64,000 bases of DNA from IMG/VR virus record IMGVR_UViG_3300032229_000206; one strand, given 5' to 3'. The notes below the pieces were generated by a model. That model saw only the letters and a program-made list of their open reading frames with translations. It was not told the origin of the DNA and made no database searches. Position 1 is the first letter of the stretch. Each line of letters opens with the position of its first letter. The DNA comes from an uncultured virus (IMG/VR IMGVR_UViG_3300032229_000206) (Duplodnaviria > Heunggongvirae > Uroviricota > Caudoviricetes). The translations under genes and the position numbers were made by a program. This document shows positions 4,022 through 19,623 of this stretch, piece after piece.

Positions 4022-4399
4022 AGACGTATCATGACAGAAAGGCTACTGCCTAAACGGGTGAATCTAAAATTTCATCAACGGCATCATCAATCGTCCTACC
4101 GCCATGTTCGGCTGCACAGTTACCGCAGTTCTTGCACATCTTCTATTTTTCGGACTTCCACTGGAAAGTCATACTTACGGATTTTAATAGGATGGAGCTT
4201 TCCGCCAACCCGCATCACGGAGCTACCAGCTCGGCGCTTCTTCCGCTTCGATGGGCTATTCGCACTTTTGTACATATCACCAGCCTACCACAGGCTACTG
4301 CCTCCTCCACTATATGCTACAGGTGTGCCTGGTACCTGGTGGCCTACTCGCCAGTAACTTGGTTTAAGGGTGGGGGGGAGAGCAGAGGGCATGAGTGCC

Positions 4400-4453
4400 T
4401 GTGGATAACTAAGTAAACAGCCTGTTGCATGGGGTAGGGCTATCGCATATGGT
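4400..4453 (+). promoter_or_regulatory. Module promoter 1: DnaA box pair + -35 TTGCAT / -10 TATGGT
   Basis: TGTGGATAA 4400-4408 (reverse complement of TTATCCACA), CTA, AGTAAACAG; -35 at 4425, 17-nt spacer, -10 at 4448. Confidence 0.75.
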
Positions 4454-4501
4454 TATCTCACTAGGTAATCAGACGGGTTACCTACCTAACGGGGAGTAAA
4501 T

Positions 4502-4923
4502 ATGAAGCGCAACTACCATTCAGTAATGGAAATCCGTATTCCTGAAAACGCAAAACTAGAGGACGTATATCTTTACACAGGATACGGACACCAATCAGGC
4601 GAAGGTGTGGACACCCATATCAGTATCGCCCTTGAATCTAGCGTGGCTAATAACCTACGCGACGAGCGAGCATGGAATAAGTATAAGTTCCAACTATCAC
4701 TAGACCAAGCGCGGGCGCTAGTCGAGCACCTAACCACAGCACTAAACACCGAAGCACCTGAGGAAGGCAAGGTTGCGTGGGTAATGATTGACGGCAAACT
4801 AGAAGCATTAGTAGCATGAAGTGCTTCGACTGTGACGGCACTATGACAGTGCTAGCAGAAGGAACTCGCGGAACCAGTTGGGTCTGCAATAAGTGTGAAC
4901 ATATCTCTATAGTAAGTAAGTAG
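4502..4923 (+). CDS. Hypothetical protein (4502-4819) plus 35-aa Zn-ribbon ORF (4816-4923)
   Basis: SD GGGGAG; second ORF MKCFDC...WVCNKC overlaps by ATGA. Confidence 0.65.
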
Positions 4924-4926
4924 GAC

Positions 4927-4961
4927 AGAGGCTGGGACTTCCCCCCCAGCCTCTTTACTTT
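4927..4961 (+). terminator. Intrinsic terminator
   Basis: AGAGGCTGGG/CCCAGCCTCT stem followed by a T-rich tail. Confidence 0.75.
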
Positions 4962-5054
4962 ACTCCCTTAGACGGCATTGGGTTAGGCATTCAACACAAA
5001 CAATATAGAACGGCATAGGGACTGGCAAAAGAACCCCAAGAACATAAGAGAGCC

Positions 5055-5108
5055 TGTGGATAACTAGGTTAACGGGCTGTTGCTTCTAATAGGGCTCTGC
5101 TATAAGTT
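5055..5108 (+). promoter_or_regulatory. Module promoter 2: DnaA box pair + TTGCTT / TAAGTT
   Basis: TGTGGATAA 5055-5063, CTA, GGTTAACGG; -35 at 5080, -10 at 5103. Confidence 0.7.
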
Positions 5109-5154
5109 TATACCAGTGAGCAAGGGGCTCACTAAATGACGGAAGGGCAACAAA

Positions 5155-5775
5155 ATGTGTTCAATATGTGGAACTAAGGAAAATATCGTGTTTAGTGGCG
5201 TAGACGCGTTTCTCCTAGAATGTATGGATAGAATCGAAAAAATCTGCTATCCATGCGCTAACGAGGAAAAGGTGAAGGTAAATGCATAATGAAATTATCT
5301 TCTACAACGGATTTAATCTCCTTGTTGACATCATTATCGGCGCAACAGTATTTTTCTTCACAGCCCGTTTCTACTGGTCTAAAGGTTACAGTGAGGGTTA
5401 CGCAGACTGTCAAGACCATGCAGAACAAGCAGGGGAAAGTTACTACAATAACTACCGAGAAAGTGACGCGCTATGAAACTAAATGTTAATCAAAAGGAAG
5501 CCATGGAGCGCATCGCAAATCGCGAGCCATTCGAGGCTTCAAGCCTAAGCGGTAAGTTTATGAACTACACACCTAGCGCAGGGCGCCTAGGTGATGAATA
5601 TAATAAGCTTATTGCAGACTTCAAGACTGGCGCCTATGTAGTCTTCTCATACGCTACGCCTATCGCATGGTTTGGCGCAAATGGTTGGTATGTAGTAGAA
5701 CAAAAGTTCTCCTCTACTACAAGCAAGACACAGACTTATGTGCGACGTGCGATTGCTGAAAGGCAAGCCGCATAG
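5155..5775 (+). CDS. Three coupled small ORFs: CxxC protein (5155-5289), membrane protein (5282-5476), conserved actinophage-type hypothetical (5473-5775)
   Basis: MCSICG...CYPC; hydrophobic LLVDIIIGATVFFF; YVVFSYATPIAW...FSSTTSKTQ motif. Confidence 0.65.
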
Positions 5776-5787
5776 AAACCCCCTAAG

Positions 5788-5823
5788 CAAGAAGCCCCCG
5801 TGCCGTCACACGGGGGCTTCTTG
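5788..5823 (+). terminator. Intrinsic terminator
   Basis: 15-bp perfect stem CAAGAAGCCCCCGTG/CACGGGGGCTTCTTG. Confidence 0.8.
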
Positions 5824-5901
5824 TTTGTGTTGGGGCGTGTGGGTGTGTATGTATGTATGGCTTTAAAGCTTCTTTATATATACACACGCCCCAACACAAA
5901 C
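5823..5901. repeat. Hairpin element A (19-bp perfect arms)
   Basis: GTTTGTGTTGGGGCGTGTG 5823-5841 / CACACGCCCCAACACAAAC 5883-5901. Confidence 0.95.
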
Positions 5902-5907
5902 TCTGCC

Positions 5908-5961
5908 TGTGGATAACTACATGAACGAGATGGAATAAGAATTGGAATAATTGGTTATAGT
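5908..5961 (+). promoter_or_regulatory. Module promoter 3: DnaA box pair + -10 TATAGT
   Basis: TGTGGATAA 5908-5916, CTA, CATGAACGA; -10 at 5956. Confidence 0.7.
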
Positions 5962-6073
5962 TACTACATGAGCAACACCGCTCATATTAGATAGATAGGA
6001 GACACACCATGACGAGATTCGTCGGACTCCATATCAGGGAGACACACTAACTATGCAAGAGGGGGGTGATAAT

Positions 6074-6475
6074 ATGCAATTTACACGCAAAAACGCAATT
6101 CTGTGTCAGCGTGACACAGTACCAAATCCAATGCGCACAGGCACTTTCTTTAGCAACATGGTGCAACTAACATGGCTCGAAGAAGACAACAATATCCTTG
6201 TCTCATTCGGTTGCCTACAATGTGGCGAACAGACTCTAAGTCGTCCACAAATGTCAATCCATGTCGGGACACACAATCCCGACAATGCTAAGCCTAAGGT
6301 ACGCGGTAAGTATAAGACCAAATCAGCCAAGAAGGCTGACGCGGTTACTACTGTTAGTAAGATGATTGACGACCTTACAGCAGAACGCGACCTATACAAG
6401 GCGCAAGCCCGCAAGTATCAAAAGCAACTTCAGGCGCTACGCGACCTGTTCAAAATTGACGATAATCTCGTCTAA
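6074..6475 (+). CDS. C2H2-like Zn-finger / coiled-coil hypothetical protein
   Basis: CLQC...HVGTH followed by a C-terminal coiled coil; SD GGGGGTG before 6074. Confidence 0.6.
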   Translation: MQFTRKNAILCQRDTVPNPMRTGTFFSNMVQLTWLEEDNNILVSFGCLQCGEQTLSRPQMSIHVGTHNPDNAKPKVRGKYKTKSAKKADAVTTVSKMIDDLTAERDLYKAQARKYQKQLQALRDLFKIDDNLV

Positions 6476-6505
6476 GGGTTTTACACCCCCCGTGTAAAGG
6501 CAACG

Positions 6506-6533
6506 AGCCCCCGCAGAGATGCGGGGGCTTTTT
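6506..6533 (+). terminator. Intrinsic terminator
   Basis: AGCCCCCGCA-GAGA-TGCGGGGGCT + TTTT. Confidence 0.85.
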
Positions 6534-6622
6534 GTTTGTGTTGGGCTTGTTGTTAATGGTTGATGTGTGTGTGAATAGCTTTCCATCTTTTATTAACTAC
6601 TAGCAACAAGCCCAACACAAAC
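6534..6622. repeat. Hairpin element B (19-bp perfect arms, extended by G-T pairs)
   Basis: GTTTGTGTTGGGCTTGTTG 6534-6552 / CAACAAGCCCAACACAAAC 6604-6622. Confidence 0.95.
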
Positions 6623-6635
6623 AACCAGGGCGCCC

Positions 6636-6701
6636 TGTGGATAACTAGGTAAACAAATAGAGATAGCCTTATTGCATGAGAGCGAGAGATAAGCCTAAGA
6701 T
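6636..6701 (+). promoter_or_regulatory. Module promoter 4: DnaA box pair + TTGCAT / TAAGAT
   Basis: TGTGGATAA 6636-6644, CTA, GGTAAACAA; -35 at 6672, -10 at 6696. Confidence 0.7.
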
Positions 6702-6748
6702 AAGCACACGCGAGACCGTCTCGCGCTATTTACCGAAGGGGGACTCTC

Positions 6749-7756
6749 GTGGCTCATGCGCTCGAGGTTCAAAATGGTGAAGTAGCCTTTGCTCTACGCG
6801 GTGCACCCGCGTGGCATGGGTTGGCTAACCGCACTTTCGGCATTGACGAGCATGTCACAACCGCTGACATGCTAGAAAGTGCCAAATTGGCTGGCTGGGG
6901 TGTAGACCTCGAGCCTGTCCAATATCCGAGCGATTATCGCTCATCATCTGACCTATTCATGGTCACACGCACCAATCCATTCGACGCTGGCAAGGATGTC
7001 CTTGCGGTCGTTGGTAAGCGTTACCGCGTATTCCAAAATGAGGATTTATTCGCGTTCGGGGATAACATCCTCGACGGCGGTGCCTCATGGGAATCTGCTG
7101 GCTCAATCAAGGATGGCAAGGTTGTCTTTGGCTCCCTAGTTGTCCCTCGTGAGTTCATCCTCGACCCACAAGGTGCGAACGATAAGACTACGACTTACCT
7201 CTTGGTCTCATCTTCACATGACGGGTCTGCAAGTGTTACCGCGTCAATCACGCCTGTGCGTGTTGTCTGCCAAAACACTCTCAACATGGCGTTGCGTGGC
7301 GTTAAGCAATCTTTCAAGTTGCGCCACACTCTCAAGGCTGGCGAGCGCACTGCTGAGGCTCGTCGCGTATTGGGACTCACTTTCAATCACATGGACACTT
7401 TCGAGACTCTCGCTCGTGACCTGTTCCAGACCTCAATGGACGCCAAGGGTTGGGATACTCTCGTGAACGCGGTTTATCCTAAGCCTGACGCACAATCAGC
7501 GCCTCAGTCACTCACCAAGTGGCAAGCCAAGCGCGACCTACTGGATGATATTTATTTCCAGTCTCCTACCCAGACCAACATCAAGGGTAATTACTGGGGA
7601 GCGCTAAACGCTCTCACTGAGCGCCTAGATTATTTCCGCTCATCACGCACCGCTAACGGCGAGGCTTTAATCGGTGCTGCTGCTGGTTTCGACCCTACTG
7701 TGAACGCTGAGAAGGCTCGTATCCTACGCGCCGTCCGCGAACTCGCTAGCGTCTAA
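6749..7756 (+). CDS. DUF932 / TIGR03299-type phage-plasmid protein
   Basis: MAHALE...PAWHGL, YRVFQN, ESAGSIKDGK, SSHDGS, TPVRVVCQNTL motifs. Confidence 0.85.
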   Translation: MAHALEVQNGEVAFALRGAPAWHGLANRTFGIDEHVTTADMLESAKLAGWGVDLEPVQYPSDYRSSSDLFMVTRTNPFDAGKDVLAVVGKRYRVFQNEDLFAFGDNILDGGASWESAGSIKDGKVVFGSLVVPREFILDPQGANDKTTTYLLVSSSHDGSASVTASITPVRVVCQNTLNMALRGVKQSFKLRHTLKAGERTAEARRVLGLTFNHMDTFETLARDLFQTSMDAKGWDTLVNAVYPKPDAQSAPQSLTKWQAKRDLLDDIYFQSPTQTNIKGNYWGALNALTERLDYFRSSRTANGEALIGAAAGFDPTVNAEKARILRAVRELASV

Positions 7757-7766
7757 CAAGCCTAGC

Positions 7767-7800
7767 AATCAGCCCCTAGCCAATCGGCTAGGGGCTGATT
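7767..7800 (+). terminator. Intrinsic terminator
   Basis: AATCAGCCCCTAGCC/GGCTAGGGGCTGATT 15-bp stem. Confidence 0.8.
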
Positions 7801-7801
7801 T

Positions 7802-7892
7802 GTTTGTGCTGGGGCTATATGGCTAGTAGTTAATACTCAGGGAAAGCTTATTCTCTCAAAATAGCCAGTAACCATATAGCCCCAGCACAAAC
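7802..7892. repeat. Hairpin element C (21-bp perfect arms, compensatory C-G variant)
   Basis: GTTTGTGCTGGGGCTATATGG 7802-7822 / CCATATAGCCCCAGCACAAAC 7872-7892. Confidence 0.95.
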
Positions 7893-7899
7893 ATTTGCC

Positions 7900-7954
7900 T
7901 GTGGATAAGTAAGTGAACTCGGTCTAGTAAGAGAATTAAAAGTGTGATTATACT
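7900..7954 (+). promoter_or_regulatory. Module promoter 5: DnaA box pair + -10 TATACT
   Basis: TGTGGATAA 7900-7908, GTA, AGTGAACTC; -10 at 7949. Confidence 0.7.
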
Positions 7955-8000
7955 TGGGGGCTCGCACCAAGCGAGAGAACTACTACCAAAGGGGTATCAC

Positions 8001-8480
8001 ATGGGTCTAGATATGTATCTAAAGGCAACAACTTACATCAACAAGATTGACTACAACGCACAAGGCGATAGCGACGCTTGGGTTACTATGGAACAATTTG
8101 ATAAGGTTGTTTCAGAGGCTGGCTTAGAAGCAGTCCACACCGACATCTATGGTGCAGAGGTTTCAGTTACCTGCGCCTACTGGCGCAAGGTCAATGCCGT
8201 TCATGGTTGGTTCGTACAGAACGTTCAGGGTGGCAACGACGATTGTGGTAACTACTACGTTCCTAAGGCTAAGTTAGAGGAACTACGTGAAGCATGCCGT
8301 CAGGCTATCTTCCACAAAAATCCGTTGTTAATCAAGCCTATGGAAGGGTTCTTCTTCGGTACTACAGATATTGACGAGTGGTACTGGAACGGGCTAAAAA
8401 GCACTATTAAACAGATTGACCGCGTACTTGCCTTGCCTAATATCGACGACTTGAGTTTCTACTATCAGTCGTCTTGGTAA
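8001..8480 (+). CDS. Conserved phage hypothetical protein (MGLDMYL...YWRK.N..HGWF family)
   Basis: Recurrent phage motifs MGLDMYL, YWRKVNAVHGWFV, GFFFG, FYYQSSW. Confidence 0.75.
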   Translation: MGLDMYLKATTYINKIDYNAQGDSDAWVTMEQFDKVVSEAGLEAVHTDIYGAEVSVTCAYWRKVNAVHGWFVQNVQGGNDDCGNYYVPKAKLEELREACRQAIFHKNPLLIKPMEGFFFGTTDIDEWYWNGLKSTIKQIDRVLALPNIDDLSFYYQSSW

Positions 8481-8490
8481 GACTATTAAG

Positions 8491-8517
8491 AAGCCCCGCA
8501 GAAATGCGGGGCTTTTT
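8491..8517 (+). terminator. Intrinsic terminator
   Basis: AAGCCCCGCA-GAAA-TGCGGGGCTT + TTT. Confidence 0.85.
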
Positions 8518-8597
8518 GTTTGTGCTGGGCTTGGGGATGGGTATATTTAAAAGTAGTATTAATGCATCTCTTATTTATACCCAAGCCCAGCACAAAC
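8518..8597. repeat. Hairpin element D (18-bp perfect arms)
   Basis: GTTTGTGCTGGGCTTGGG 8518-8535 / CCCAAGCCCAGCACAAAC 8580-8597. Confidence 0.95.
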
Positions 8598-8619
8598 ATT
8601 ACTCGCCAGTAACATAGCC

Positions 8620-8674
8620 TGTGGATAACCAGGTGAACAAGAGTTTGAGAGGTGTCTGTTAGATAGTCTAATAT
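8620..8674 (+). promoter_or_regulatory. Module promoter 6: DnaA box pair + TTGAGA / TAATAT
   Basis: TGTGGATAA 8620-8628, CCA, GGTGAACAA; -35 at 8645, -10 at 8669. Confidence 0.75.
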
Positions 8675-8719
8675 AAAGCCATGAGCACAAGGGGTGCTCA
8701 TATGAGAGAAAGAGCGGGT

Positions 8720-9202
8720 ATGTTCACACTCAACGACATCACCTACTATGAGGAAAGCGACATCGCTGACCGCATAGCAAGTGAGCGCAGTACCGCAAGC
8801 GAGTGGGCTATAAATAGCCTACGCGCTGATAATCGCCATGAAACCTTGGCGATATTCAAAGCCGAGGTATCGGCTGGCTCAATGACGGAAGAAGATGCCG
8901 TCGAACTGTTTAATAAGATTGCTACAGCCTGTGGCTGGGAGCATGCTGAGGAGTCCGACTTACGGACACGATTTCGCGCAGAGGTTAGCCTCTTGGGTGA
9001 AGTTGTACTTGAACTTGACGATATTGAGGCGGACGACGAAGACGACGCCAAGCAAAAAGTTCTAGATGATATTTCCTTCGATAATATCGAAGTTCGCGGT
9101 GACCTATCAGTCTTAGGTGATAGCGGTTCGTTCCGTGCGGGTACATGGGACCTAGATGATTTCCTAAATGATAACCTCGAAGTCGAGATATACGAGGCTT
9201 AG
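8720..9202 (+). CDS. Highly acidic hypothetical protein
   Basis: About 42 D/E in 160 aa by hand count; start moved downstream of the predicted transcription start. Confidence 0.65.
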   Translation: MFTLNDITYYEESDIADRIASERSTASEWAINSLRADNRHETLAIFKAEVSAGSMTEEDAVELFNKIATACGWEHAEESDLRTRFRAEVSLLGEVVLELDDIEADDEDDAKQKVLDDISFDNIEVRGDLSVLGDSGSFRAGTWDLDDFLNDNLEVEIYEA

Positions 9203-9219
9203 CAGATACCCCTGCTAGG

Positions 9220-9248
9220 AAGCCCCCGCCGCAAGGTGGGGGCTTTTT
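9220..9248 (+). terminator. Intrinsic terminator
   Basis: AAGCCCCCGCC-GCAA-GGTGGGGGCTT + TTT. Confidence 0.85.
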
Positions 9249-9260
9249 CATGCCGTAAAA

Positions 9261-9352
9261 GTTTGTGTTGGGGCTATTAGATGGCTATTTAAGCTTTTAT
9301 TGCTTTAATAGATTCATCTATTAAAGCGCCATCTAATAGCCCCAACACAAAC
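9261..9352. repeat. Hairpin element E (25-bp perfect arms, nested inner hairpin)
   Basis: GTTTGTGTTGGGGCTATTAGATGGC 9261-9285 / GCCATCTAATAGCCCCAACACAAAC 9328-9352; inner GCTTTAATAGAT/ATCTATTAAAGC 9302-9327. Confidence 0.95.
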
Positions 9353-9354
9353 CC

Positions 9355-9409
9355 TGTGGATAAGTAGATGAACAGCCCTCTGTGCAGATGAGAGATGAGA
9401 GATTAGTAT
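9355..9409 (+). promoter_or_regulatory. Module promoter 7: DnaA box pair + -10 TAGTAT
   Basis: TGTGGATAA 9355-9363, GTA, GATGAACAG; -10 at 9404. Confidence 0.7.
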
Positions 9410-9438
9410 TACGCCTGTTACTTAGTAAAGGAGATACT

Positions 9439-10575
9439 ATGAACAAGACAGAACGCAGAGAGCGTTTTACAGAACTAATGACGACAATAGAGTTATTAGG
9501 TAATCAGCATGACGAGAACTACGACCCTAAGTTCCCACGGGGGTCTTATGGTCTATCAGACGGCAACCTTAAAACCGCAGTAATGGCACAGGCTATGAGA
9601 GAAGATGATGAGTTCGTTGGTAACCTTATTAACGCGCTCGCCAACACAGGTCTAGGTGCATGCCAAGAAGCACACGAACGCGACGAACAACCAAGCGAGG
9701 ACGACCTATCTTGCGCCACACTAGCAGTTCATGTGGCATGGGCTAAGGGCGCGTTTATGCCAATGGCGTTCCTAATGGGCACTATCGCCAAGATGATAGA
9801 TGTCTTTGATATGGAAGTACCTGAGGACTTAACACTTATCCTTCGCAGTAACTCAGGTATGCAGGACAAGGCAAATATGTTTGACCCGATAGCACTATTA
9901 GATATGACGACGAAAGACTTGAAGCGTTATATCGAGGAAGGATTGTCAAATGGCAACTAAGGTTATTAACGGCAAGAAAATGGTAGAAGTACCATTCACA
10001 GTTACCTTCAATGTGTGCGTAGAGGAACACGAATACCTGAAGTATGTAACTAGCGGTATCGTAGATGGGGCTATGGCACAAGCAGGTAAGGAAACCCTAT
10101 TAGATAGTATTAAGCCCGTAATGGACAAGGCTAATGAAAATTGGTCTTATATGATGATTGAGGTGGCGTAATGCAGATTAAAGACATGATGACACCTGCT
10201 ATGTGTAAGAGCACTATCGGTGGGTGGATATGGTATTGCGATAGTTGCGATACCCACGGCAACGCCAATTCCTCAGATGAGGCAGAGCATATGGCTGAGG
10301 CTCATGCGCTGTACCACTCATGGGATGAGGATGTGGAGTACGACGAGGAGAAAGACCCTGACGGGGAGAACATAACCTCATATATGGAACTACCCTATGA
10401 AGAACGGGAGTTCTCACTCGCTAACTGGAGTATGGAGTGCCTACAAGCAACCTACCTTATTAGCGTAGATGACAACATTACCTACAACTATGGTGATGAC
10501 TATGAAGATAAGACTATTAGACCGATAGATTTAGAAGTAGCCAACGAGATTAAGAAACGGATGGGATTAGCATAA
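9439..10575 (+). CDS. Three acidic hypothetical proteins (9439-9960, 9950-10171, 10171-10575)
   Basis: SD AAGGAG before 9439; coupled overlaps; the third has CxxC...HxxxH. Confidence 0.7.
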
Positions 10576-11090
10576 TGGGTATGGATGTATATGGAAATAA
10601 CCCTATTAGTGAGAAGGGTGAGTATTTCCGCAACAATGTATGGTGGTGGCGACCTTTGTGGGATTTCTGCGAGGAGATTGCCCCTGAACTGACACACGGA
10701 GTCCAAGGTCATACCAACGACGGAGATGGTCTAGATGAGGAAGGCGCTAAGGCGCTCGCTAATATCCTCACAATAAGCCTATCAGAAGGCGTTGTAGATA
10801 CCTATGAGCAGAAGCGTAATGAGTATCTAGCAAGCCTACCTAAAGAGCCGTGCAAATACTGTGAGGCAACAGGTATCCGTACTGATAGCGTGGGCGTGGA
10901 GCACGGCATGGATGTACAAGTCTTATCAGATGCCGAGGCGAGCGCACTAGGTAGGACTATTGGATACTGTAATGGGTGTCAAGGCAAGGGAGAAACAGAT
11001 AGTTGGGAGACACACTATCCGTTTAGTAGGACTAATGTACAAGAGTTTGCCGAGTTTCTAGCAGATAGTGGTGGTTTTAAAATCTGCTAG
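10575..11090 (+). CDS. Conserved phage protein (MGMDVYG...YFRNNVWWWRPLW) with a DnaJ-like CxxCxxxG insert
   Basis: Motifs visible: CKYCEATG, CNGCQGKG, terminal FLADSGGFKIC. Confidence 0.7.
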   Translation: MGMDVYGNNPISEKGEYFRNNVWWWRPLWDFCEEIAPELTHGVQGHTNDGDGLDEEGAKALANILTISLSEGVVDTYEQKRNEYLASLPKEPCKYCEATGIRTDSVGVEHGMDVQVLSDAEASALGRTIGYCNGCQGKGETDSWETHYPFSRTNVQEFAEFLADSGGFKIC

Positions 11091-11127
11091 GATGTAGTAT
11101 CTCCGCCCCCTTCGGGGATATACCACC

Positions 11128-11160
11128 AAAGCCCTCTGCTAGGACTAGCAGAGGGCTTTT
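11128..11160 (+). terminator. Intrinsic terminator
   Basis: AAAGCCCTCTGCTAG/CTAGCAGAGGGCTTT stem. Confidence 0.8.
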
Positions 11161-11177
11161 ATCTGCCGCCAGCCTGG

Positions 11178-11323
11178 AATGTTTGTGTTGGCCCACCCAT
11201 CGCATAAATGTATTCAATTATACATTTATGCTAACCCACCCTTTTTGCCAGCCTTTTTATATTAAAAAGGCTGGATTCCTCTGTTGAGCAATAAGCCGTA
11301 GGCTATTGCTCAACACAAACATT
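11178..11323. repeat. Hairpin element F (13-bp ends enclosing three internal hairpins)
   Basis: AATGTTTGTGTTG 11178-11190 / CAACACAAACATT 11311-11323; inner GCATAAATGTAT/ATACATTTATGC, CCAGCCTTTTTA/TAAAAAGGCTGG, TGTTGAGCAATA/TATTGCTCAACA. Confidence 0.9.
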
Positions 11324-11330
11324 TGCCGCC

Positions 11331-11361
11331 TGTGGATAACTAGATGAACGAGAGTTTGACA
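11331..11361 (+). promoter_or_regulatory. Module promoter 8: DnaA box pair + TTGACA (no ORF follows)
   Basis: TGTGGATAA 11331-11339, CTA, GATGAACGA; TTGACA at 11356; poor -10. Confidence 0.6.
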
Positions 11362-11566
11362 AGCAAAGAGAGCCAATGATAAGAGAGTGAGAGAGCGCGT
11401 CTAATAGGCTTATTTAGCCGTTAGGCTACTGCCACCGAGCCGAAGGGAGTGTGCAGGGATACGACCAGATGAGAGGCTATGGGATAGGCTTATTATGATG
11501 ATAGGTGGCGGTGGTGGCGGTAGAGAGGTTGTTCATAGGTTGTTCAGGGTAAAGAGAGGGAGAGGT

Positions 11567-11630
11567 TGTGGATAACTAGATGAACAGATTATAGAGCCGT
11601 CTTTAATATAGAGAGCCTATGCCCTAGTAT
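11567..11630 (+). promoter_or_regulatory. Module promoter 9: DnaA box pair + -10 TAGTAT
   Basis: TGTGGATAA 11567-11575, CTA, GATGAACAG; -10 at 11625. Confidence 0.7.
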
Positions 11631-11682
11631 CTGAGGGTGGGATACAGAAGGTATCTCCGTTACCGCACCGAAGGGTCACAAT

Positions 11683-13221
11683 ATGCTCGCACTACTCGTA
11701 GTGTCTGACACCGAACTAGAAGGAACACCTGCACAATCGCAGACTCTCCTAGTTGGTACAGATACAGAAGTTATCGGATACCACCGCGTATCCAATGGAC
11801 AGAAGGGGCGTGGTCAATCATGGCAACCCCTTACAGATAGCACTATCCCAACCGCCCCTATCACCAACGAGCCATGCGCCGTTGTCCTATCAGATAGGGA
11901 TATGGAGATGATGAAGTTAGGTCAAATTACCAATATCGGTATCAAAGCCCTATACGCCCTAGAAAGCGCACCTGCTATCCACGACGGCAACCCTCACAAT
12001 GAGGTAGTAGATAGTCTTATTACACGCCTAGAGTCAGGCGACCAATCCCTAACTAACCTTATTACCGACAAGCGCAGAACGACGGGTGTATCTATTAAGC
12101 CTATCGCGAAGGCAGAGGAAGTAACACAGGTCATGGAAGTATCCGTCGTACCTACTAAGGTTACTAACTACACCGAACTATCTAATAACCTCGTTACACA
12201 AATGGTATCCGTACCCGACAAGAAGTGGGCTAAGGAATATATCAACCGCAAGGTCGTTAATAACCTTACCGACTTTGAGATTTACGACTACGCCAACGCT
12301 AACGACATGAATATCCTTATTGAGGGTCACGCAGGGTCAGGTAAGACTATGAGCGTACAAGCGTTCGCTTCCGCTAGAGGCATGCGCTACTTCAATGTCG
12401 CGTGTCATATCGGGCTAGAAGCCTCACACCTAATCGGTCGTTGGATACCAACGGCAGACGGGCACTTCCGTTGGCAAGACGGCGCAGTTACAGAAATTGT
12501 CCGTAATGGTGGCGTACTCCTATTTAACGAGATTAACTTTGCACCTGAACGCTTCCTCACCTTTATCTTTAGCCTATTAGATTATCGCCGTGAGATACAG
12601 TTAATGGAAAATGGCGGAGAAGTTATCAAGGCTCACCCTGACCTACTAATCGTGGCAGACATGAACCCTGACTATCGTGGCACTCGCCCACTTAATCAAG
12701 CACTCGCCGACCGCTTCGCAGTACGCCTATCATTCCCATACGATAAGCCTATTGAGCAGAAGTTACTCGGTAACAAAGCCCTAGTAGATATGGCTAACCA
12801 ACTCCGTGATGAGTTTAATAAGGGTACGCTATTGACTCCCGTATCTACTAGAGCGTTGGTCGCGTTCGTAAAGCATGCTAAGCAGTTTGGCATGGACTTC
12901 GCTACTTACACCTATGTCAATAGTTTTGAGGGTGATGAGGAACGCTCGGCAGTACGCCTAGTAATCAACACCCACCGCGACAATATCGCAGAGGAACTAG
13001 GACTAGAAGTTACTAATAAGGCTAGTGTGTTTGGTAACTCTAACTTAGAACAGGCTATCGCTAATACAGAAATAGGCGCACAGGTCGCTTCATACGAAGC
13101 CGTAGTCGCACCTAGCGACCCTGACATTACCGCTAGTCAGGTCATGGAAGTAGAACTTAATAACATTATCAACGGCAACAACCCGAACCTCGTTGCTAAC
13201 CTTATTGTAGAGGGTAACTAA
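11683..13221 (+). CDS. MoxR/CbbQ/CobS-like AAA+ ATPase
   Basis: Walker A GHAGSGKT, Walker B LLFNE, MNPDYRGTRPLNQALADRF. Confidence 0.9.
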   Translation: MLALLVVSDTELEGTPAQSQTLLVGTDTEVIGYHRVSNGQKGRGQSWQPLTDSTIPTAPITNEPCAVVLSDRDMEMMKLGQITNIGIKALYALESAPAIHDGNPHNEVVDSLITRLESGDQSLTNLITDKRRTTGVSIKPIAKAEEVTQVMEVSVVPTKVTNYTELSNNLVTQMVSVPDKKWAKEYINRKVVNNLTDFEIYDYANANDMNILIEGHAGSGKTMSVQAFASARGMRYFNVACHIGLEASHLIGRWIPTADGHFRWQDGAVTEIVRNGGVLLFNEINFAPERFLTFIFSLLDYRREIQLMENGGEVIKAHPDLLIVADMNPDYRGTRPLNQALADRFAVRLSFPYDKPIEQKLLGNKALVDMANQLRDEFNKGTLLTPVSTRALVAFVKHAKQFGMDFATYTYVNSFEGDEERSAVRLVINTHRDNIAEELGLEVTNKASVFGNSNLEQAIANTEIGAQVASYEAVVAPSDPDITASQVMEVELNNIINGNNPNLVANLIVEGN

Positions 13222-13222
13222 T

Positions 13223-15094
13223 ATGCCTAAGGCTAATCAGAACGACATATTAGATAACCTTATTAACGAACTTCGTTACGGGGGAGAATATAACTCCCGT
13301 GATGAGGAAGGTAATTGGGTTACAGATTACGACGCTATTGAGGAACGACAGGAAGCCGTCGCAAAGCATATCGAAAAGTTACAATCGGTAGGCTTCGTGT
13401 ATAGCAAGGCAGATAGGATTATTACAGGCGACCCCGTAGAAGTACGGGTTGAGGATAACCCTGAAATGGATACTACCGCCTACAACGACGGCAAGAATAT
13501 CGTGTTCAACGCACACCTATTAGAGGACATAACCGACGAAAGTATCGTGAGCCTTCACGGGTTTAACTACCATGAAGTCGCGCATATCCTATGGACTCCG
13601 CGTGGTGGTAGTGAGTTTGGTACGACTATCAGACAGGAGAAGTTAGGCAGAGCCTTCAATATCCTAGAGGATAGCCGTATCGAACGACTACTAATCGCAA
13701 AGTATCCTGCAACCGCACCCTTCCTAGAAGCGTCTAGCCTAGAGTATATTCTTAAAGGCGACCCTAGTGAGTGGTGCGATTACTTCCCACTATTTACAGG
13801 TCGTAAGTATTTAGATATAGATTTACGACAAGAACTCGCAGATAGGTTTATTAAGAAGCATGGAGTAGCAACCGCACAGTTGCTATCCGTAATCGTGCAT
13901 GAATACCGCACCCTAGTATTCCCACGCGACTATGCGAGAGCGTTAGATATTCTCCGACAGTTTGCAGATATAGTCGGTAAAGACGACCAACCGACTAGCA
14001 ATATCCCACAAGACGGGGGCGGTCATGGCGACCGCAAGCCTATGGATAAGGGTCGCATGGAAGGTAACAAGGAACAACAGAAACTACAAGATAAGGCTAG
14101 TAGTCAGGAAAGCGGTAGTAACGCAGGTAATGAGAAGTTAGATGAACCTGCCGATAACAGTAACTCCAACGATACAACAGGCTTATCAGATGAGCAGAGC
14201 GCAGAGGATAAGGCACTTAAAGATAAGATTAACAATGACCTTACCGACCTACTAAAGCGTGAGGAAGTAAAGCGAGATACACAGGAAGTCCGTAAGGCTA
14301 TCCGTGATAACTCTAACTCTCATAGTGCTATTAAGCAGGGCGCATACACTAATAGCGTTGTGAAGCCACAGTTACAGGCTAACGCTCGTAACTTCGCCGT
14401 GGCTATGGAACGCCTACGGATAGATAACGACCCACAATGGGAGTTAGAAGTAGAAAGCGGTCGCTTAAATATAGGTCGCGCTATGAAGGCAGATATTAAC
14501 GACATTAACCGCCTATTCGATAGGTGGAGTGAAGGTAATAGCAACAACGACATAGAAGCGGTAGTCCTAGTAGATACTAGCGGTAGCATGGGTTGGCAGA
14601 TACAACGCACTATGGAAAGCGCATGGACTATCAAGCGCGGTATTGAACGCATTAACGGGCGTGTATCCGTCTATAAGTTTAACCATGACTCTCGCCTAGT
14701 TTATAGTGGAGATGAGAAGGCTAAGCCTACGGAGTACCGCTTCGTAAATAGTAGCGGTGGCACTAACCCATACAAAGCCCTATTAGAAGCGCAACGCATA
14801 CTTCGCACTAGCCGTAAAGGTATCAAGATACTATTTATCGTTACCGACGGCTCATGGGATATGACAGAGCAGAACGATAGGGTTATTAAAGATTTATCTA
14901 GCGAAGGCGTTATGACTAGCGTAGCCTTCCTCGGTGACTTTGAGTGGATAAAGGCTAACGACCATGAACGCTACAAGGCGTATATGAAAGAAGTACGCCA
15001 CGAAGCACAGGTAATGCGTGTAGTATCAGAGCCACGCGACCTAGTAGATATTGCTAAAGACCTAGTTAAGTTGGTAATGGGTAAGAAGCACTAA
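13223..15094 (+). CDS. VWA-domain protein with N-terminal HExxH metallopeptidase-like domain (CobT-like partner)
   Basis: YHEVAH, FNILEDSRIE, MIDAS DTSGSM, VTDG. Confidence 0.85.
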   Translation: MPKANQNDILDNLINELRYGGEYNSRDEEGNWVTDYDAIEERQEAVAKHIEKLQSVGFVYSKADRIITGDPVEVRVEDNPEMDTTAYNDGKNIVFNAHLLEDITDESIVSLHGFNYHEVAHILWTPRGGSEFGTTIRQEKLGRAFNILEDSRIERLLIAKYPATAPFLEASSLEYILKGDPSEWCDYFPLFTGRKYLDIDLRQELADRFIKKHGVATAQLLSVIVHEYRTLVFPRDYARALDILRQFADIVGKDDQPTSNIPQDGGGHGDRKPMDKGRMEGNKEQQKLQDKASSQESGSNAGNEKLDEPADNSNSNDTTGLSDEQSAEDKALKDKINNDLTDLLKREEVKRDTQEVRKAIRDNSNSHSAIKQGAYTNSVVKPQLQANARNFAVAMERLRIDNDPQWELEVESGRLNIGRAMKADINDINRLFDRWSEGNSNNDIEAVVLVDTSGSMGWQIQRTMESAWTIKRGIERINGRVSVYKFNHDSRLVYSGDEKAKPTEYRFVNSSGGTNPYKALLEAQRILRTSRKGIKILFIVTDGSWDMTEQNDRVIKDLSSEGVMTSVAFLGDFEWIKANDHERYKAYMKEVRHEAQVMRVVSEPRDLVDIAKDLVKLVMGKKH

Positions 15095-15167
15095 GGTAGG
15101 GAAGTAGCAATCGAACAGGCGTTCGCACCTACCGCGACCGCCCACCACAAACAGAAGGGATATAACT

Positions 15168-17420
15168 ATGGAATACCAAGACCCAAATATAGATTACAAA
15201 GAACTACTAAAAGAAGTATTAACCCGATTAAAGGCGCATGAGGAAGTCGAAGGCGACGAGTACGGGGTCAATGCGTGTGATACCGCGCTAGATTATTTAT
15301 TCTACCTAGAGGACAGAAGCAAATGAACCCACAATACCTAACCCTATTTAATAAATATATAAATGGTGATGAGAAGGCAATAAGCCTATTAGATACCGCA
15401 CTAGATGTAGCACTAGACACCGCATACCTACGCGGTAGCCATGACGAGCGCATAGATAACCTTGACTACCTTGACGAGCGCATGGTGCTAGACGAGATGA
15501 ACGACAGTATCTATGACCTAATGGTGGAGTTAAATATAGAAGCACCTATCGTGGGCTACCTAAGCCTATTAGAAACAGAAAGCGAGCAAGCGTAATGGAA
15601 TACACAAAGGAAAACCTATACTCTATGGTAAATGCGGTAGAGGAAGCACGATACGCAGTAACCGACCCTAAGTTAAAGGGTCGGCTAGGAGATGTAGCAG
15701 ACCTATTAGATAGCCTTATTGTAGAAGGCGTTATTGAGCGAGAGGTAGAGGAATATGCCTAAGTACGAAGTAAGAGTTGTAGCAGATATATCAACCGCGT
15801 GGGATACAGATACAAGCGCGGAAGCCCTAGCGTTAGCAGATGAGTGGGTGCGACAGGAATATGGCGACCTTATCCACAAGGCTAACCTTATTGTAAAGGA
15901 GATAGCATGAGCGTAACAGAGTTATTAGATGAGTTAGATAGGCTTATTGAAGGACACCCGTTAGCATGCGGTTGTGCTAATTGTCTTACTAGGGATACAA
16001 TTACAGAAGTTATGTATCAAAGAAACCTAAGAACGGGAGTGTCTTACCATGTCTGATGAGTTTATCGGATACGACCATGAAGGTCACGAAGTATATGAAG
16101 GCGAAATTATAGAGAACTTAGACGACGACCTAGACGACGCGTTAGAGGAAGTTAGCGACTATTGGAAGTTGGTCGCGTACCACTTACAGAATAATCTTAA
16201 CCCACCCGTACCCCTTGCTATGGTAGAAACATGTATTGAGGCTATCGAACACGCCAATAAAGAGGAGTGGGATAGCCTTATTACACTACCCGAAGGAATT
16301 AAATATAAAGGAGAGAGTGAAGCCACAGTAGAAACTATTGTTGATGGTCACTACCTACAAGATTTTATTACAACAGCAAGAGAAGTTGTTACAATTACCG
16401 ATAATGAAGGAACAGTAATTTACAAGGGTTATGGTACGGAATATAAATTAGAACCTCACTCCACTATTACAGATGAGAACCTAGAGGACTTCGGTATCGA
16501 GAAATGAGATGCGCCCGTTGTTTTATTGAGTATGATAACGGAGAGTTAATCGCACCCGAAGGCATGGATATTGAGCAAGCCGTAGCGGTTGGGTTAGCCT
16601 TTTGCGTGATGTGTATAGTACCGCAGGGTAGTCCTGCGTCTATTTGAGAGAGAGAGAGAGAGAGAATTATGTCCGAAGAAAGAGAGAATAAATGTGGCTG
16701 CGGGAATTGCAGTTGCGGAGAGAGTAACGAAGGATTAAAGATAGAAAAGAGAGTCGTTTCGGAAATGGACGGCGTTAGTTAGTTTGTGTTGGCGCACTAG
16801 ACAAGTTTGTTATATAGCAGTACCCTTTTCACGCCTACCCTAAGGAGAAATTAAATGGCTAAGAAAGTAAATGTAGTATTTGACGCTACGCTAAAGAAGA
16901 ACCCTGAGAAGGGTGGCGCATGGTTAGCCCGTGTTACCACCTATGATGAGGGCATTGACGAAGGTAATGTAATCGTATCAACCGCATGGTCTAACGCGAG
17001 CGCAGGTAAGCGTTGGATTAAAGAAATGGTTATTAAGATGACTACCAAGAAGTCTGTAAAGATGATTGCTGGTACTGACCTTGACGCTAAGGGTAAGCCT
17101 ATGGCGTTTGAGGGCAAAGTATTGTTTAAGAGAGAGATTTAATAGTTAAATGGCAACCTTTGGTTACTCGTTTGACCCTATCGTACCTGACCCAGAGTGG
17201 GGCAGACCTTCACCTGATATTCCAGATGAAGAAATTTATGATGATGATGAGTTAGAAGATGATGATTAAAGATATAAGAGTCCGTAACCCGTTTTATATT
17301 AAAGAGAGTAAGTTCGGGGATAGTTCTACTGTGCAAGTTCTATGCTTTCACTGTGGTAGCACTTACCGCACACACCCTAATAATCTAAGAGTTCCTAATT
17401 ACTGTAGTAACTGTAAGTAA
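15168..17420 (+). CDS. String of short, mostly acidic hypothetical ORFs (e.g. 15168-15326, 15323-15595, 16049-16507, 16855-17142 and several under 60 aa)
   Basis: ORF track plus own reading; coupled starts and SD sequences. Confidence 0.55.
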
Positions 17421-17523: not shown

Positions 17524-17566
17524 AGAGAGCCCCTAGTTTTCGGGTAACTAGGGGCTCTCTACTTTT
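17524..17566. terminator. Terminator at the convergence of the + and - blocks
   Basis: AGAGAGCCCCTAGTT/AACTAGGGGCTCTCT 15-bp stem. Confidence 0.8.
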
Positions 17567-17574
17567 ATATTAGT

Positions 17575-19623
17575 TTATTGTTTAGGTACTTCGCAGTAGT
17601 CTGTTGAGCAGTATTTCTCACCGATTGCATCCGCTGCCATTCCCGCATAGACATCAGTAAAGTCAATAGGCAGTAACTTCATAGTAGATTTATCGTATTC
17701 TTCTTTAGTTATCTGTGTGTATGGCATTTGCGGGTAAGTCGCGTTCCCCATAGGTAGGAAGGAAACGGTTTTGAGTTGCCCGTCAAACATGTGTAACACT
17801 GTTCCCACGGCATCCTTTTCTTTGTCCGCGTCAAACGATACTGTAACGCTTACGCTGTTGTCCGACCAATGGCGTTGAGCCATAGCGGCAAGAGAAGTTT
17901 TTTCATATATAGAAACATCTTTCTCACTGCGTAGTGCGGAGCTATGGATAGGGAAGAAGACTACAGAAGTTGTTTTTGGAGATTCCGAAGCCTTTTCTAC
18001 TTTATAACCCGACGCTCTAAAGAGAGGTAGCATAGGGTCATCATTAGAAAAGCGGATTGCACGGTTAAAGTACTCTCCACCTGGCGTCCAGTGCACTCCA
18101 GGAGATTCTCCAGCAAGGATAGACACAGTTCCGCTTGGCTTCACAGTAGTAGTCTTAATAGATTCGCGGATACCTAGCCACTCTGAGTATGTGCGGTCAT
18201 AGTCTTGGATAACTTTGTAACCAGAGTCCATCCACTCACGGAGAGTTGGCAAGCCCTTGCGGTCTGCAAAGTTAGCAACACCAGACATAGAAGTTCCAAT
18301 GCGACGATTGCGTTGCATGATTGCGTTAGTTTCTTCCCAGTGAGTAGGAAGCAATGTCACGGTCTTTGCATACAGGTAGGCAAACTTTAGTGTGCGCTTG
18401 TAATCTTCAATAGAGTCGTGGCGGTTGAGGTAAGTTTCAACCAGAGTACAGCACTCAAAAGACTCCAATGATTGTTCGGCACACGGATTGTAACCAGATG
18501 CTCGATGGTCTTTGTTGTTAATTGGGTCAATAAGGCGACCATACTGACGGGTAACATCCATCCAGATAACCCCAGGCTCTCCGTTGAGAGAGATTCCGTC
18601 AATGATTCCAGAGAAGTCGTCTCCAACCTTTACCTCAACAGAGTTGTTAGACATCCATGCCCAACCAGGAGAGGCAGGGTCATAGGAGTTGCGTTCAGGA
18701 TATACGGCAGGGTTCTTTAAGTTTAAGAAGTCCTTATCGTCCAAACGACCCATGAGAAGTTCTGCTGAGCGGCGGACGTTGCCAGAGACAACGCAGACAC
18801 CGATGAGATTGCCTATATCCGCAATATCTTTGCGAGTTAACTTTTGAGTAGCCCGACCTTCAAATAGGTTAGAAATATAGTCGTGTAATTTAACGAGAGG
18901 CCCTGGACCAGCTGCAGTGCCGCCGAAGGTCTTGATTGGCTCTCCTTCAGGACGGATAAGTGTGTAATCAAATACCCATCTAGGCTGTTCTGGTTTTAAG
19001 TAAGAGTTAATCAACATACCTACTGAGTCCACCCATCCCTCGCGGGTATCTGGGATTTCCCAGACTTGGTGGTTAGCCTCATCTTTGGAAGGTGAGTAGA
19101 TAAGGAAGTCCTTATCTGCACCCTTGTCATCAAAGCCAACACCTACTCCTAGCATTGACGCTTCCATTAGGAAGGTAAACGGTTTAGCAGGGTCTAACTT
19201 AGTCATAGAAGCAGTGGAGACAAAAGAGCAGTTCTGAAGAGCCGCTGAGTTCTTTTGTTCATTCACTAGCGGAGTACCCATTACCCAGAGTCCGCGACCT
19301 GGGGGAGTCCACTTTAAGTTAAACAAACGGTCAAAGGCTTCCTTAGCCGAAGCCTGAGCTCGTGAGTCATTCCATGGAAGACGCTGAGACTTGCAGTGGT
19401 CTTTCTGGATTGAGTACATGCCTTCGATTACTCGTTGGCAAACATCAGTCCATGTCTCCTTAGTTCCGTCAGCCTTTAGACGAGAGTAGGTGCGGAGAAA
19501 AGTAATTTCACCGACGGAATTACCGCCAGCATCTCTGTATCCCCAAGGCACTTGTTTAGCACGGTACTCCTTTAGAAAGTCTTCGGCTAGTCGGAAAGAT
19601 AGTGCCATGTGTTCTCCATTCAT
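17575..19623 (-). CDS. nrdJ: Class II (adenosylcobalamin-dependent) ribonucleotide reductase
   Basis: FLRTYSR, PPGRGLW, GNVRRSAE, NPCAEQSL, TTVKPSGT, C-terminal YCSTDYC. Confidence 0.92.
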   Translation of the reverse strand: MNGEHMALSFRLAEDFLKEYRAKQVPWGYRDAGGNSVGEITFLRTYSRLKADGTKETWTDVCQRVIEGMYSIQKDHCKSQRLPWNDSRAQASAKEAFDRLFNLKWTPPGRGLWVMGTPLVNEQKNSAALQNCSFVSTASMTKLDPAKPFTFLMEASMLGVGVGFDDKGADKDFLIYSPSKDEANHQVWEIPDTREGWVDSVGMLINSYLKPEQPRWVFDYTLIRPEGEPIKTFGGTAAGPGPLVKLHDYISNLFEGRATQKLTRKDIADIGNLIGVCVVSGNVRRSAELLMGRLDDKDFLNLKNPAVYPERNSYDPASPGWAWMSNNSVEVKVGDDFSGIIDGISLNGEPGVIWMDVTRQYGRLIDPINNKDHRASGYNPCAEQSLESFECCTLVETYLNRHDSIEDYKRTLKFAYLYAKTVTLLPTHWEETNAIMQRNRRIGTSMSGVANFADRKGLPTLREWMDSGYKVIQDYDRTYSEWLGIRESIKTTTVKPSGTVSILAGESPGVHWTPGGEYFNRAIRFSNDDPMLPLFRASGYKVEKASESPKTTSVVFFPIHSSALRSEKDVSIYEKTSLAAMAQRHWSDNSVSVTVSFDADKEKDAVGTVLHMFDGQLKTVSFLPMGNATYPQMPYTQITKEEYDKSTMKLLPIDFTDVYAGMAADAIGEKYCSTDYCEVPKQ

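Follow-up and report, generated by a model that had tools for sequence, protein, structure and literature searches.

In integrons, promoterless cassettes are read from one shared promoter and are separated in an array by attC sites, structured elements whose inverted ends are conserved and whose paired interior varies; bacteria use DnaA boxes as transcription-factor sites. T4-type phages carry promoter-early stem-loops (PeSLs), composites of an early promoter and a stem-loop terminator that, as described in the portions of the two reports available to us, are concentrated in hyperplastic regions before ORFans, also form mini-circles, and recombine in a way that explains the insertions, deletions and replacements seen between close relatives (PMC2839356; PMC4122927). 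Here we analyse a 64,000-nucleotide stretch of DNA from an uncultured virus of the Caudoviricetes (IMG/VR record IMGVR_UViG_3300032229_000206; the whole stretch is called the window below), in which + strand genes are separated by copies of one intergenic module. We consider it likely that this is an accessory, probably early, hyperplastic region in which each transcription unit is bracketed by a reusable five-part module (terminator, palindrome, box motif, promoter and leader hairpin) and in which recombination between module copies shuffles the units.

The locus resembles the PeSL arrays, as far as the parts of those reports seen here describe them, in its repeated modules of predicted promoter and terminator, mostly before ORFans, in the proposed recombination between copies and in the lack of a dedicated recombinase. 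Features that define PeSL regions were found here as well: a stem-loop predicted to end upstream transcription, a hyperplastic region before ORFans, and insertions, deletions, replacements and shuffling with breakpoints at the cassettes. The preliminary description of this DNA, which knew of no described phage system combining these parts, thus overstated its case, PeSL cassettes being a described form of modular shuffling in T4-type phages (from the excerpts of PMC2839356 and PMC4122927). The differences are nevertheless several. The lineage and host differ, this being an actinophage-like myovirus rather than a T4-type phage; a near-identity DNA search of the block against 50,697 phage records gave no close match, the best relatives of its family A DNA polymerase (PolA) and DUF932 proteins are actinophages, and on this sequence evidence the array is not a member of the PeSL family. 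Within the PeSL text available, PeSLs have neither palindrome nor box, whereas here a 70-140-nt palindrome is combined with a 22-nt DnaA-box-like site phased to the -10 element; terminator and promoter are separate here rather than interleaved, with a leader hairpin present, and the promoter is dominated by its -10 element, in contrast to the strong sigma-70 consensus of PeSLs.

The repressor sites of Cluster A mycobacteriophages (operators and 'stoperators') are, in the part of the source seen, likewise short, asymmetric, one-orientation repeats that are largely intergenic and whose motif varies between related phages (PMC6550527). Stoperators are described there as lying mostly away from promoters and blocking elongation for a prophage repressor (PMC6550527), whereas the sites here are set at a fixed distance upstream of the -10 and contain a 9-mer identical to the host DnaA box, and neither the window nor the remainder of the complete relative G004 yielded a repressor or an integrase. 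The likeness to bacterial DnaA boxes lies in an exact TTATCCACA, a site predicted from sequence alone; unlike those boxes, it sits here within a longer conserved motif, is used nine times in a phage and has been dispensed with by a sister lineage. The novelty lies in the phased DnaA-box-like site, in a family of palindromes under constraint and in the wholesale swap of the motif in that sister lineage. Among the matches listed by our literature searches on phage DnaA-box promoters (the best 15 of 135) and actinophage intergenic repeats, there was no description of the module.

The + strand block at ~4.0-17.4 kb is the window's sole long one and is flanked on both sides by - strand blocks. The grammar proposed in the preliminary description (terminator, inverted repeat, box, -10, leader hairpin, Shine-Dalgarno site, genes) is present; its extent, given there as 4390..16800, has to be narrowed, as the modular array occupies 4.4-11.7 kb and 11683-17420 is a single long unit free of modules inside it, in which just an orphan left terminus occurs at 16782. 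The features, all on the + strand, are as follows.

4397-4418 (+): motif of unit 1, with box 4400-4408, -35-like TTGCAT 4425-4430, -10 TATGGT 4448-4453 and leader hairpin 4462-4484
4502-4923 (+): unit 1 genes, 105 aa and a 34-aa Cys-rich open reading frame (ORF)
4927-5001 (+): terminator (4927-4954) and degenerate palindrome, of which the right terminus alone remains (4992-5001)
5052-5133 (+): module of unit 2, with box 5055-5063, -10 TAAGTT 5103-5108 and leader hairpin 5115-5133
5155-5775 (+): unit 2 genes, 44, 66 and 100 aa
5784-5901 (+): terminator (5784-5826) overlapping palindrome 1 (5823-5901, 79 nt)
5905-5985 (+): module of unit 3, with box 5908-5916, -10 TATAGT 5956-5961 and leader hairpin 5968-5985
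6053-6475 (+): unit 3 gene, 140 aa
6505-6622 (+): terminator (6505-6530) and palindrome 2 (6534-6622, 89 nt)
6633-6725 (+): module of unit 4, with box 6636-6644, -10 TAAGAT 6696-6701 and leader hairpin 6709-6725
6749-7756 (+): unit 4 gene, DUF932 / TIGR03299, 335 aa
7765-7892 (+): terminator (7765-7803) and palindrome 3 (7802-7892, 91 nt)
7897-7975 (+): module of unit 5, with box 7900-7908, -10 TATACT 7949-7954 and leader hairpin 7961-7975
8001-8480 (+): unit 5 gene, probable start 8001, 159 aa
8487-8597 (+): terminator (8487-8518) and palindrome 4 (8518-8597, 80 nt)
8617-8702 (+): module of unit 6, with box 8620-8628, TTGAGA 8645-8650, TAATAT 8669-8674 and leader hairpin 8680-8702
8681-9202 (+): unit 6 gene, ~165-173 aa
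9217-9352 (+): terminator (9217-9248) and palindrome 5 (9261-9352, 92 nt)
9352-9409 (+): module of unit 7, with box 9355-9363 and -10 TAGTAT 9404-9409
9439-11090 (+): unit 7 genes, the first with probable start 9439, then 9950-10171, 10171-10575 and 10575-11090
11128-11320 (+): terminator (11128-11160) and palindrome 6 (11181-11320, 140 nt, branched, same closing termini)
11328-11566 (+): unit 8, with box 11331-11339 and TTGACA 11356-11361, followed by a conserved ORF-free stretch
11564-11657 (+): module of unit 9, with box 11567-11575, -10 TAGTAT 11625-11630 and leader hairpin 11639-11657
11683-17420 (+): long operon of unit 9, with AAA_5 (CobS-like) 11683-13221, VWA (CobT-like) 13223-15094 and small ORFs to 17420
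17524-17560 (+): terminator closing the + strand block and facing the - strand ribonucleotide reductase gene

Comparison with relatives supports the view that these units behave as separate cassettes. Using the DUF932 protein as bait, we retrieved 32 related IMG/VR loci, nine of which (DUF932 protein identity 93% to 59%) share the scaffold; a strict palindrome-plus-box pattern was found in 47 stretches in 19 viral contigs. A near-identical record (G001) and these relatives were used for comparison, and an all-against-all comparison of ORFs combined with blastn between nine related genomes revealed at least six cassette-level events, as expected of the hypervariable cassette block that had been proposed. 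The alignment of relatives had been set beforehand as the test: whole units are gained, lost, replaced and reordered, with homology breaking at palindrome termini or in the box region, and we did not find relatives with the same genes in fixed order lacking the elements. The window and L011 both have unit 5, which L009 and L010 lack; collinearity with L010 ends at window position 7822 and resumes at 8586, so that 763 nt (7823-8585) stand against 44 nt (L010 8452-8495), and both breaks fall within palindrome termini. The 140-aa gene (6053) precedes the DUF932 gene in the window, L010 and L011 and follows it in L012, L013, L014 and L020, moving together with its downstream terminator and palindrome. 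Unit 6 (8681) is absent from L012 and L013, and in L011 and L012 unit 1 (4502) is swapped for unrelated genes between the box region and the next terminator. Change also occurs within units: the gene at 10171-10575 alone is missing from L012, L013, L014, L020 and a contig of run X2.

The concentration of change is visible at the scale of complete genomes. In two complete relatives, 22 of 141 and 29 of 152 ORFs were unmatched, and ~15 of the 22 and ~16 of the 29 lie in this block by coordinates; in complete relatives of 96.9 kb and 98.0 kb, all terminus motifs and all but 1-2 boxes fall within one ~17-kb block. Contigs from a second sample contain joints (called at 88% likeness, with short sides of 22-31 nt) at 4419>5102 and 7908>8668, each of which drops one cassette, ends beside two boxes and carries 27 or 37 other letters between the sides, and a further joint, 10168>10573, drops one gene. 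Another joint, 4015>9303 (run X1, the probable source), was set aside, one of its sides being 21 nt. Contigs from two metatranscriptome libraries (X19 and X20) cover 21 and 16 of the 30 bins of the block, coverage that shows neither ends nor strand and may include DNA carry-over; many of the pieces are 88-95% alike and so derive from relatives rather than from the genome in the window.

Six full palindromes of 79-140 nt were found, as had been proposed, and their termini (GTTTGTGYTGG / CCARCACAAAC) are invariant over 11-12 bp; in addition, one right terminus stands alone at 4992-5001 and one left terminus at 16782-16792. The window has 12 matches to CCARCACAAAC where 0.06 would be expected (0 of 100 shuffles), with all occurrences reported within 5.8-16.8 kb. 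With relatives included, copies range from 68 to 143 nt, and the 140-nt class is branched and closed by the same termini. As MAFFT/RNAalifold aligned no more than the 12 terminal pairs, mirror positions were used to examine the interiors: positions 13-19 are paired in 81-93% of 54 distinct copies and show 3-5 pair types, whereas random re-pairing of the arms gives 37-56%, and by about position 30 pairing is down to the background level. The pair at position 8 is T-A in 45 copies, C-G in the other 9, and broken in none (in the alignment, 15 U-A, 7 C-G and none broken). Folded as RNA, all 12 copies examined give -39 to -58 kcal/mol (z -7.7 to -13.4), and the loops are AT-rich. Orthologous palindromes are 95-97.5% identical, loops included (L012, L013 and L014), whereas neighbouring genes are 67-84% identical, which indicates that the interior is constrained or exchanged as a unit. 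One palindrome 'allele' also occurs in different slots, that at L010 8432 resembling those at L013 9777 and L014 9815.

The remaining parts of the module concern transcription. Seven strong stems with T runs (G+C-rich, -20 to -35 kcal/mol) are predicted as intrinsic terminators between units, in agreement with the preliminary description; one precedes every full palindrome and another the degenerate palindrome at 4992, at a distance of -4 to 20 nt, and in many cases the T run and the left palindrome terminus merge. Downstream of the palindrome, TGTGGATAA matches ten times in 64 kb against 0.65 expected (0 of 100 shuffles reach 10). Nine of these matches are the perfect + strand copies that had been counted earlier (4400, 5055, 5908, 6636, 7900, 8620, 9355, 11331 and 11567), and the single - strand match lies in a gene at 15870. 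The 9-mer is the core of a conserved motif of ~22 nt (family D1). A -10 at a fixed distance had been claimed for all units; a TAnnnT element 39-40 nt past the box bears this out in six of the nine. Among 58 distinct box-downstream sequences from eight genomes, TAnnnT begins at offset 39-40 in 25, compared with ~0-4 at each other offset (about one per offset), orthologues being included in these counts so that events are not independent. In ~10 of those 25, judged by eye row by row, a TTG-type -35 (TTGCAT, TTGAGA, TTGCAC or similar) lies 16-17 nt upstream of the -10. If transcription starts ~7 nt past the -10, the box would lie at about -61 to -53. Spacing between box and -10 is fixed whereas that between palindrome and box varies from 2 to 22 nt, which argues that the box is part of the promoter and the palindrome is not. 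Leader hairpins had likewise been proposed throughout; they are clear in seven of the nine units, starting 4-9 nt past the -10 with a purine-rich ribosome-binding site next, weak at 9355 and unclear at 11331. The leader hairpin of the DUF932 gene keeps its pairing through double changes, with differing stem sequences in the L010, L012 and L020 orthologues.

Some further features of the array were observed. GAGAG repeat runs lie directly 5' of the -10 in several units (6680-6695, 9390-9403 and 11370-11395), a (GA)n run occupies 16649-16667, and the same is seen in relatives; the GAGAG runs may be a second promoter-proximal signal. The listed GTG starts at 7944 and 9382 lie upstream of the predicted -10, and if translation begins instead at the in-frame ATGs 8001 and 9439, both of which follow a ribosome-binding site, the proteins match those of the relatives in length (159 and 173 aa). 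Between two boxes and upstream of the AAA_5 (CobS-like) gene lies an ORF-free unit of ~240 nt (11331-11682), in which the short blocks GGCTACTGCC and GCCAGAT are kept after a TAGGCT-like -10 in all eight aligned relatives; it matched no Rfam family and could represent a small RNA or else a long leader subject to regulation. CYTATTAGAT has four + strand copies within genes (10096, 12573, 15385 and 15702) against 0.32 expected, related words occur among the repeat families of the window, and it may encode a peptide motif. Pfam, PHROGs and NCBIfam name only DUF932/TIGR03299, AAA_5 and VWA among the cassette genes, 22 of 25 block proteins having no NCBIfam model and 20 of 23 no Pfam family, and the DUF932 literature pointed to no function among the 13 matches listed. 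The host-takeover or anti-defence role first suggested for the region is thus conjectural.

The 9-mer resembles a known site. TTATCCACA is given as the highest-affinity DnaA box, with consensus TTWTNCACA, in the part of the source available (PMC8287927), and the nine perfect copies in the window match both. Eight close loci contain 62 perfect 9-mers against 1.14 expected, with single-mismatch variants near background. In the more distant group, the consensus reaches 51 occurrences (4.5 expected) and TTTTCCACA 21 (5.4 expected), and a C>T change at position 8, where the consensus tolerates variation at positions 3 and 5 only, is also raised (18 against 7.6). The variants in relatives (TTTTCCACA, TTATGCACA, TTATACACA and TTGTCCACA) fit the DnaA consensus; L037 has head-to-head box pairs in which the second half is TTGTCCACA, TTATACACA or TTATGCACA, and distant relatives that have no palindromes carry TTATCCACA, TTTTCCACA and TTATGCACA in inverted or tandem pairs just past terminators and upstream of good TTGTCA/TAGACA-18-TATAAT promoters. 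The distant relatives (L017-L040, for example L034 9892-9923; 56-59% DUF932 identity) also have TGTGA-N6-TCACA palindromes, which we take to be CRP-like, right after terminators and with near-consensus promoters.

Several points weigh against the reading of the array as units bracketed by a reusable module. The promoters, the terminators and the 'early' timing are predictions from sequence. In the three units that lack the phased TAnnnT, -10 candidates lie at ~49-51 nt or are weak; a scan of the block for the sigma-70 consensus found 17 sites against 22 +/- 5.5 expected, which is no enrichment, and only one of the nine box-linked promoters passed it, so that the predicted promoters depend on their -10 element. 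Promoters dominated by the -10 element are known from actinobacteria, and the poor scan result fits this. The joints in the second sample probably come from related strains and are not variants of the genome in the window, and invariant termini of 11-12 bp are short for RecA-type homology. As to DnaA, the 9-mer is near-invariant in the close group, unlike the degenerate boxes of origins, and the conserved site spans 22 nt rather than 9. Furthermore, a sister lineage (L013 7367-14368, which is record G003, and contigs L231-L233) has kept gene order and palindromes and replaced all boxes by a composite of CTGTGAGTTT, about 10 nt and GGCGTGTCG, in 12-14 copies on the + strand only; one decayed box pair is all that it retains. 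The short motif of this lineage also adjoins boxes in distant relatives, and the prefix CCTGTG is common to both motif types. Co-regulation by a host protein through the DnaA box, as put forward in the preliminary description, is no more than a candidate explanation, given that this lineage swapped every box for another motif.

Such a swap fits a lineage-specific reader at least as well as it does DnaA. The box could be the operator of a phage-encoded, lineage-specific regulator that co-evolves with it, as in Cluster A, with the match to a DnaA box arising by coincidence or mimicry. The many one-orientation copies of the substitute motif in a lineage that has only decayed boxes, the nearly invariant 22-nt site and the shared CCTGTG prefix all favour this, and one-orientation sites that vary together with their repressor are documented in Cluster A in the part of that source seen (PMC6550527). 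Set against it, no candidate regulator emerged: among the lineage-specific ORFs of box-type and other-motif genomes (22 and 29), the 17 scanned with Pfam (G003 and G004) gave only weak WYL_2 matches, and helix-turn-helix proteins in the window are limited to WhiB and a weak MerR/HTH_17 match. The exact 9-mer and TTTTCCACA are, moreover, enriched in distant relatives, often as inverted pairs with TTATGCACA and TTGTCCACA variants fitting TTWTNCACA, and if the promoters belong to the first wave their reader must pre-exist in the cell. We regard the phage operator as a credible alternative, though its chances fall short of even; host DnaA is the best named candidate for reading the box, at a probability that also stays somewhat under one half, and another host or phage factor has about the same. 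A different role for DnaA, in which the array forms phage replication origins, the boxes beside AT-rich loops opening DNA for a DnaB/DnaC-like loader, or a sink that titrates DnaA from the host origin, seems very improbable to us. The phage does encode a DnaB-like helicase, an IstB/DnaC-like ATPase and a primase with no recognisable initiator, the box is the highest-affinity DnaA site in the portion of PMC8287927 available, and the palindrome loops are AT-rich; yet box distance is fixed to the -10 and not to the palindrome, nine one-orientation sites with one per gene unit are unlike the layout of an origin, no clear NAN-repeat (the DnaA-trio, as in the same portion of PMC8287927) was seen past the box by eye, and the box-less sister lineage has the same replication genes.

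The palindromes invite a similar choice between DNA and RNA. Inter-cistronic RNase III processing sites are known from the early region of T7, and the palindromes here might act as RNA, within read-through transcripts, as RNase III sites or as protective 3' hairpins. They are intergenic and on the transcribed strand, and their stems, at 19-33 bp, would suffice for RNase III and fold very stably as RNA. They stand, however, past strong terminators and ahead of the next promoter; G:T mismatches (58) are about as frequent as A:C mismatches (52) among 880 cells, a result without the wobble bias of selection on one RNA strand; and conservation among orthologous copies is 95-97% in the loops and across the entire interior, with no Rfam family reaching its gathering score (sub-threshold matches were generic hairpin or leader models, such as miRNA precursors). 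An RNA role is therefore rather unlikely in our view: the lack of wobble bias and the place between terminator and next promoter favour action on DNA, which is probable on these sequence grounds, and we read the palindromes as boundary elements and preferred joints of cassette exchange. Least probable of all, we think, is that they mark the ends or attachment sites at which a site-specific recombinase or transposase moves a dedicated mobile system, either attC-like as in integrons or like a miniature inverted-repeat transposable element (MITE). The palindromes do share with attC sites a similar length, conserved inverted ends and a variable paired interior between cassettes, here a self-complementary one in elements of 68-143 nt, and cassettes are swapped at them. 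Pfam nonetheless identified no integrase, resolvase, transposase, sigma factor or RNA polymerase among 102 (33 + 69) ORFs of the window, confirming the earlier impression that integrase and transposase are missing from it, nor any of these families among the 62 further ORFs that make up the rest of the complete 98-kb relative G004; in neither set was a tyrosine or serine recombinase or an HUH or DDE transposase found, and the left block of G004 has one small HNH_3 match. The box region is a place of joints as well, inspection of the flanks by eye showed no target-site duplications, and each cassette has its own promoter, with the elements always in the same slot of the module. Integron attC sites were accordingly rejected, there being no integrase and a box, -10 and terminator of its own in each unit (the termini presumably do not fit attC core sites), and so were MITEs, given no recombinase, no target duplications by eye, a fixed slot and own promoters. 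The window does encode RecA (34029-35090) and an Mre11-like exonuclease, so that, with no dedicated mobility enzyme, general recombination between repeated modules, as proposed for PeSLs, would be the simplest mechanism.

Our preferred reading of the array, that reusable modules bracket and shuffle its units, can be set out as a sequence of steps. An intrinsic terminator would stop the upstream unit; the 70-140-nt palindrome, in the untranscribed gap, may be a boundary in the DNA that is marked by a protein or able to form a cruciform; the 22-nt box site would bind a transcription factor that contacts RNA polymerase, with host DnaA as a candidate; a host-type promoter, with a TAnnnT -10 and often a TTGcat -35, would follow; and a stem-loop at the predicted 5' end of the transcript, ahead of the Shine-Dalgarno site, may stabilise the mRNA. 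Copies of the module would recombine through RecA-type machinery of the phage, without a site-specific recombinase. As the module is repeated in one orientation, recombination would delete, insert, replace or relocate whole promoter-gene-terminator units. The anatomy, its statistics, the covariation of the stems and the rearrangements in relatives are observed, and we infer the early timing, the binding protein, the action of the palindromes on DNA and the pathway of recombination. A bolder version, which we hold to be unlikely, is that a whole group of abundant freshwater phages wires exchangeable cassettes to host DnaA, which would sit at a fixed place ahead of every cassette promoter as a common switch, that the palindromes are protein-marked, integrase-free joints, and that the switch itself is modular and was swapped in one lineage.

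The window is most of one phage genome, and by its gene content and relatives the phage is a contractile-tailed, actinophage-like freshwater myovirus of ~96 kb; complete relatives in IMG/VR measure 96-98 kb, and the runs that contain the sequence are freshwater and lake metagenomes. Pfam and PHROGs identify tail sheath, tail tube, baseplate J and gp25-like proteins in the window, a replication set of family A DNA polymerase, SNF2 helicase, DnaB-like helicase, primase and IstB/DnaC-like ATPase, and also a class II ribonucleotide reductase, a TGT-like enzyme, Hsp20, SpoVS and a WhiB regulator; three tRNAs are present. Homologues of WhiB, SpoVS and Hsp20, listed in that order, are found one in each of the following - strand intervals.

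33405-33722 (-): WhiB homologue
29939-30223 (-): SpoVS homologue
28888-29406 (-): Hsp20 homologue

The best polymerase matches are Streptomyces phages at ~40% identity, and the 546 records matching DUF932 include Mycobacterium (217), Streptomyces (116) and Arthrobacter (50), with actinophages as the best. The host is probably a low-GC actinobacterium, because of WhiB, the PolA hits and the spread of DUF932 hits. Three neighbouring features were also recorded. The TGT/DpdA-like protein (PHROG 'queuine tRNA-ribosyltransferase'; 19717-21171, - strand) hints at 7-deazaguanine DNA modification. The class II (B12-dependent) ribonucleotide reductase (17575-19623, - strand) adjoins the CobS/CobT-like AAA_5 and VWA pair (11683-15094, + strand). 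In the relative L217 (14305-17522, record G004), a 934-aa collagen-repeat protein precedes one that carries an Mtd_N (major tropism determinant) domain; both are presumably parts of a tail fibre.

As DNA elements under strong constraint, the palindromes make up a family that is undescribed and has no match in Rfam, and the module would be a source of small, portable parts (promoter, terminator and insulator) for use in low-GC actinobacteria. The swap of motif in the sister lineage amounts to a natural experiment through which the reader of the box might be identified. If that reader is DnaA, accessory genes would be expressed according to the host's state of replication; we found no description of such a link in the literature searched. 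The array extends the idea behind PeSLs, that modules are expression signals and recombination joints at once, from T4-like coliphages to uncultured phages, probably of freshwater actinobacteria, in which the grammar of the module is richer and stricter.

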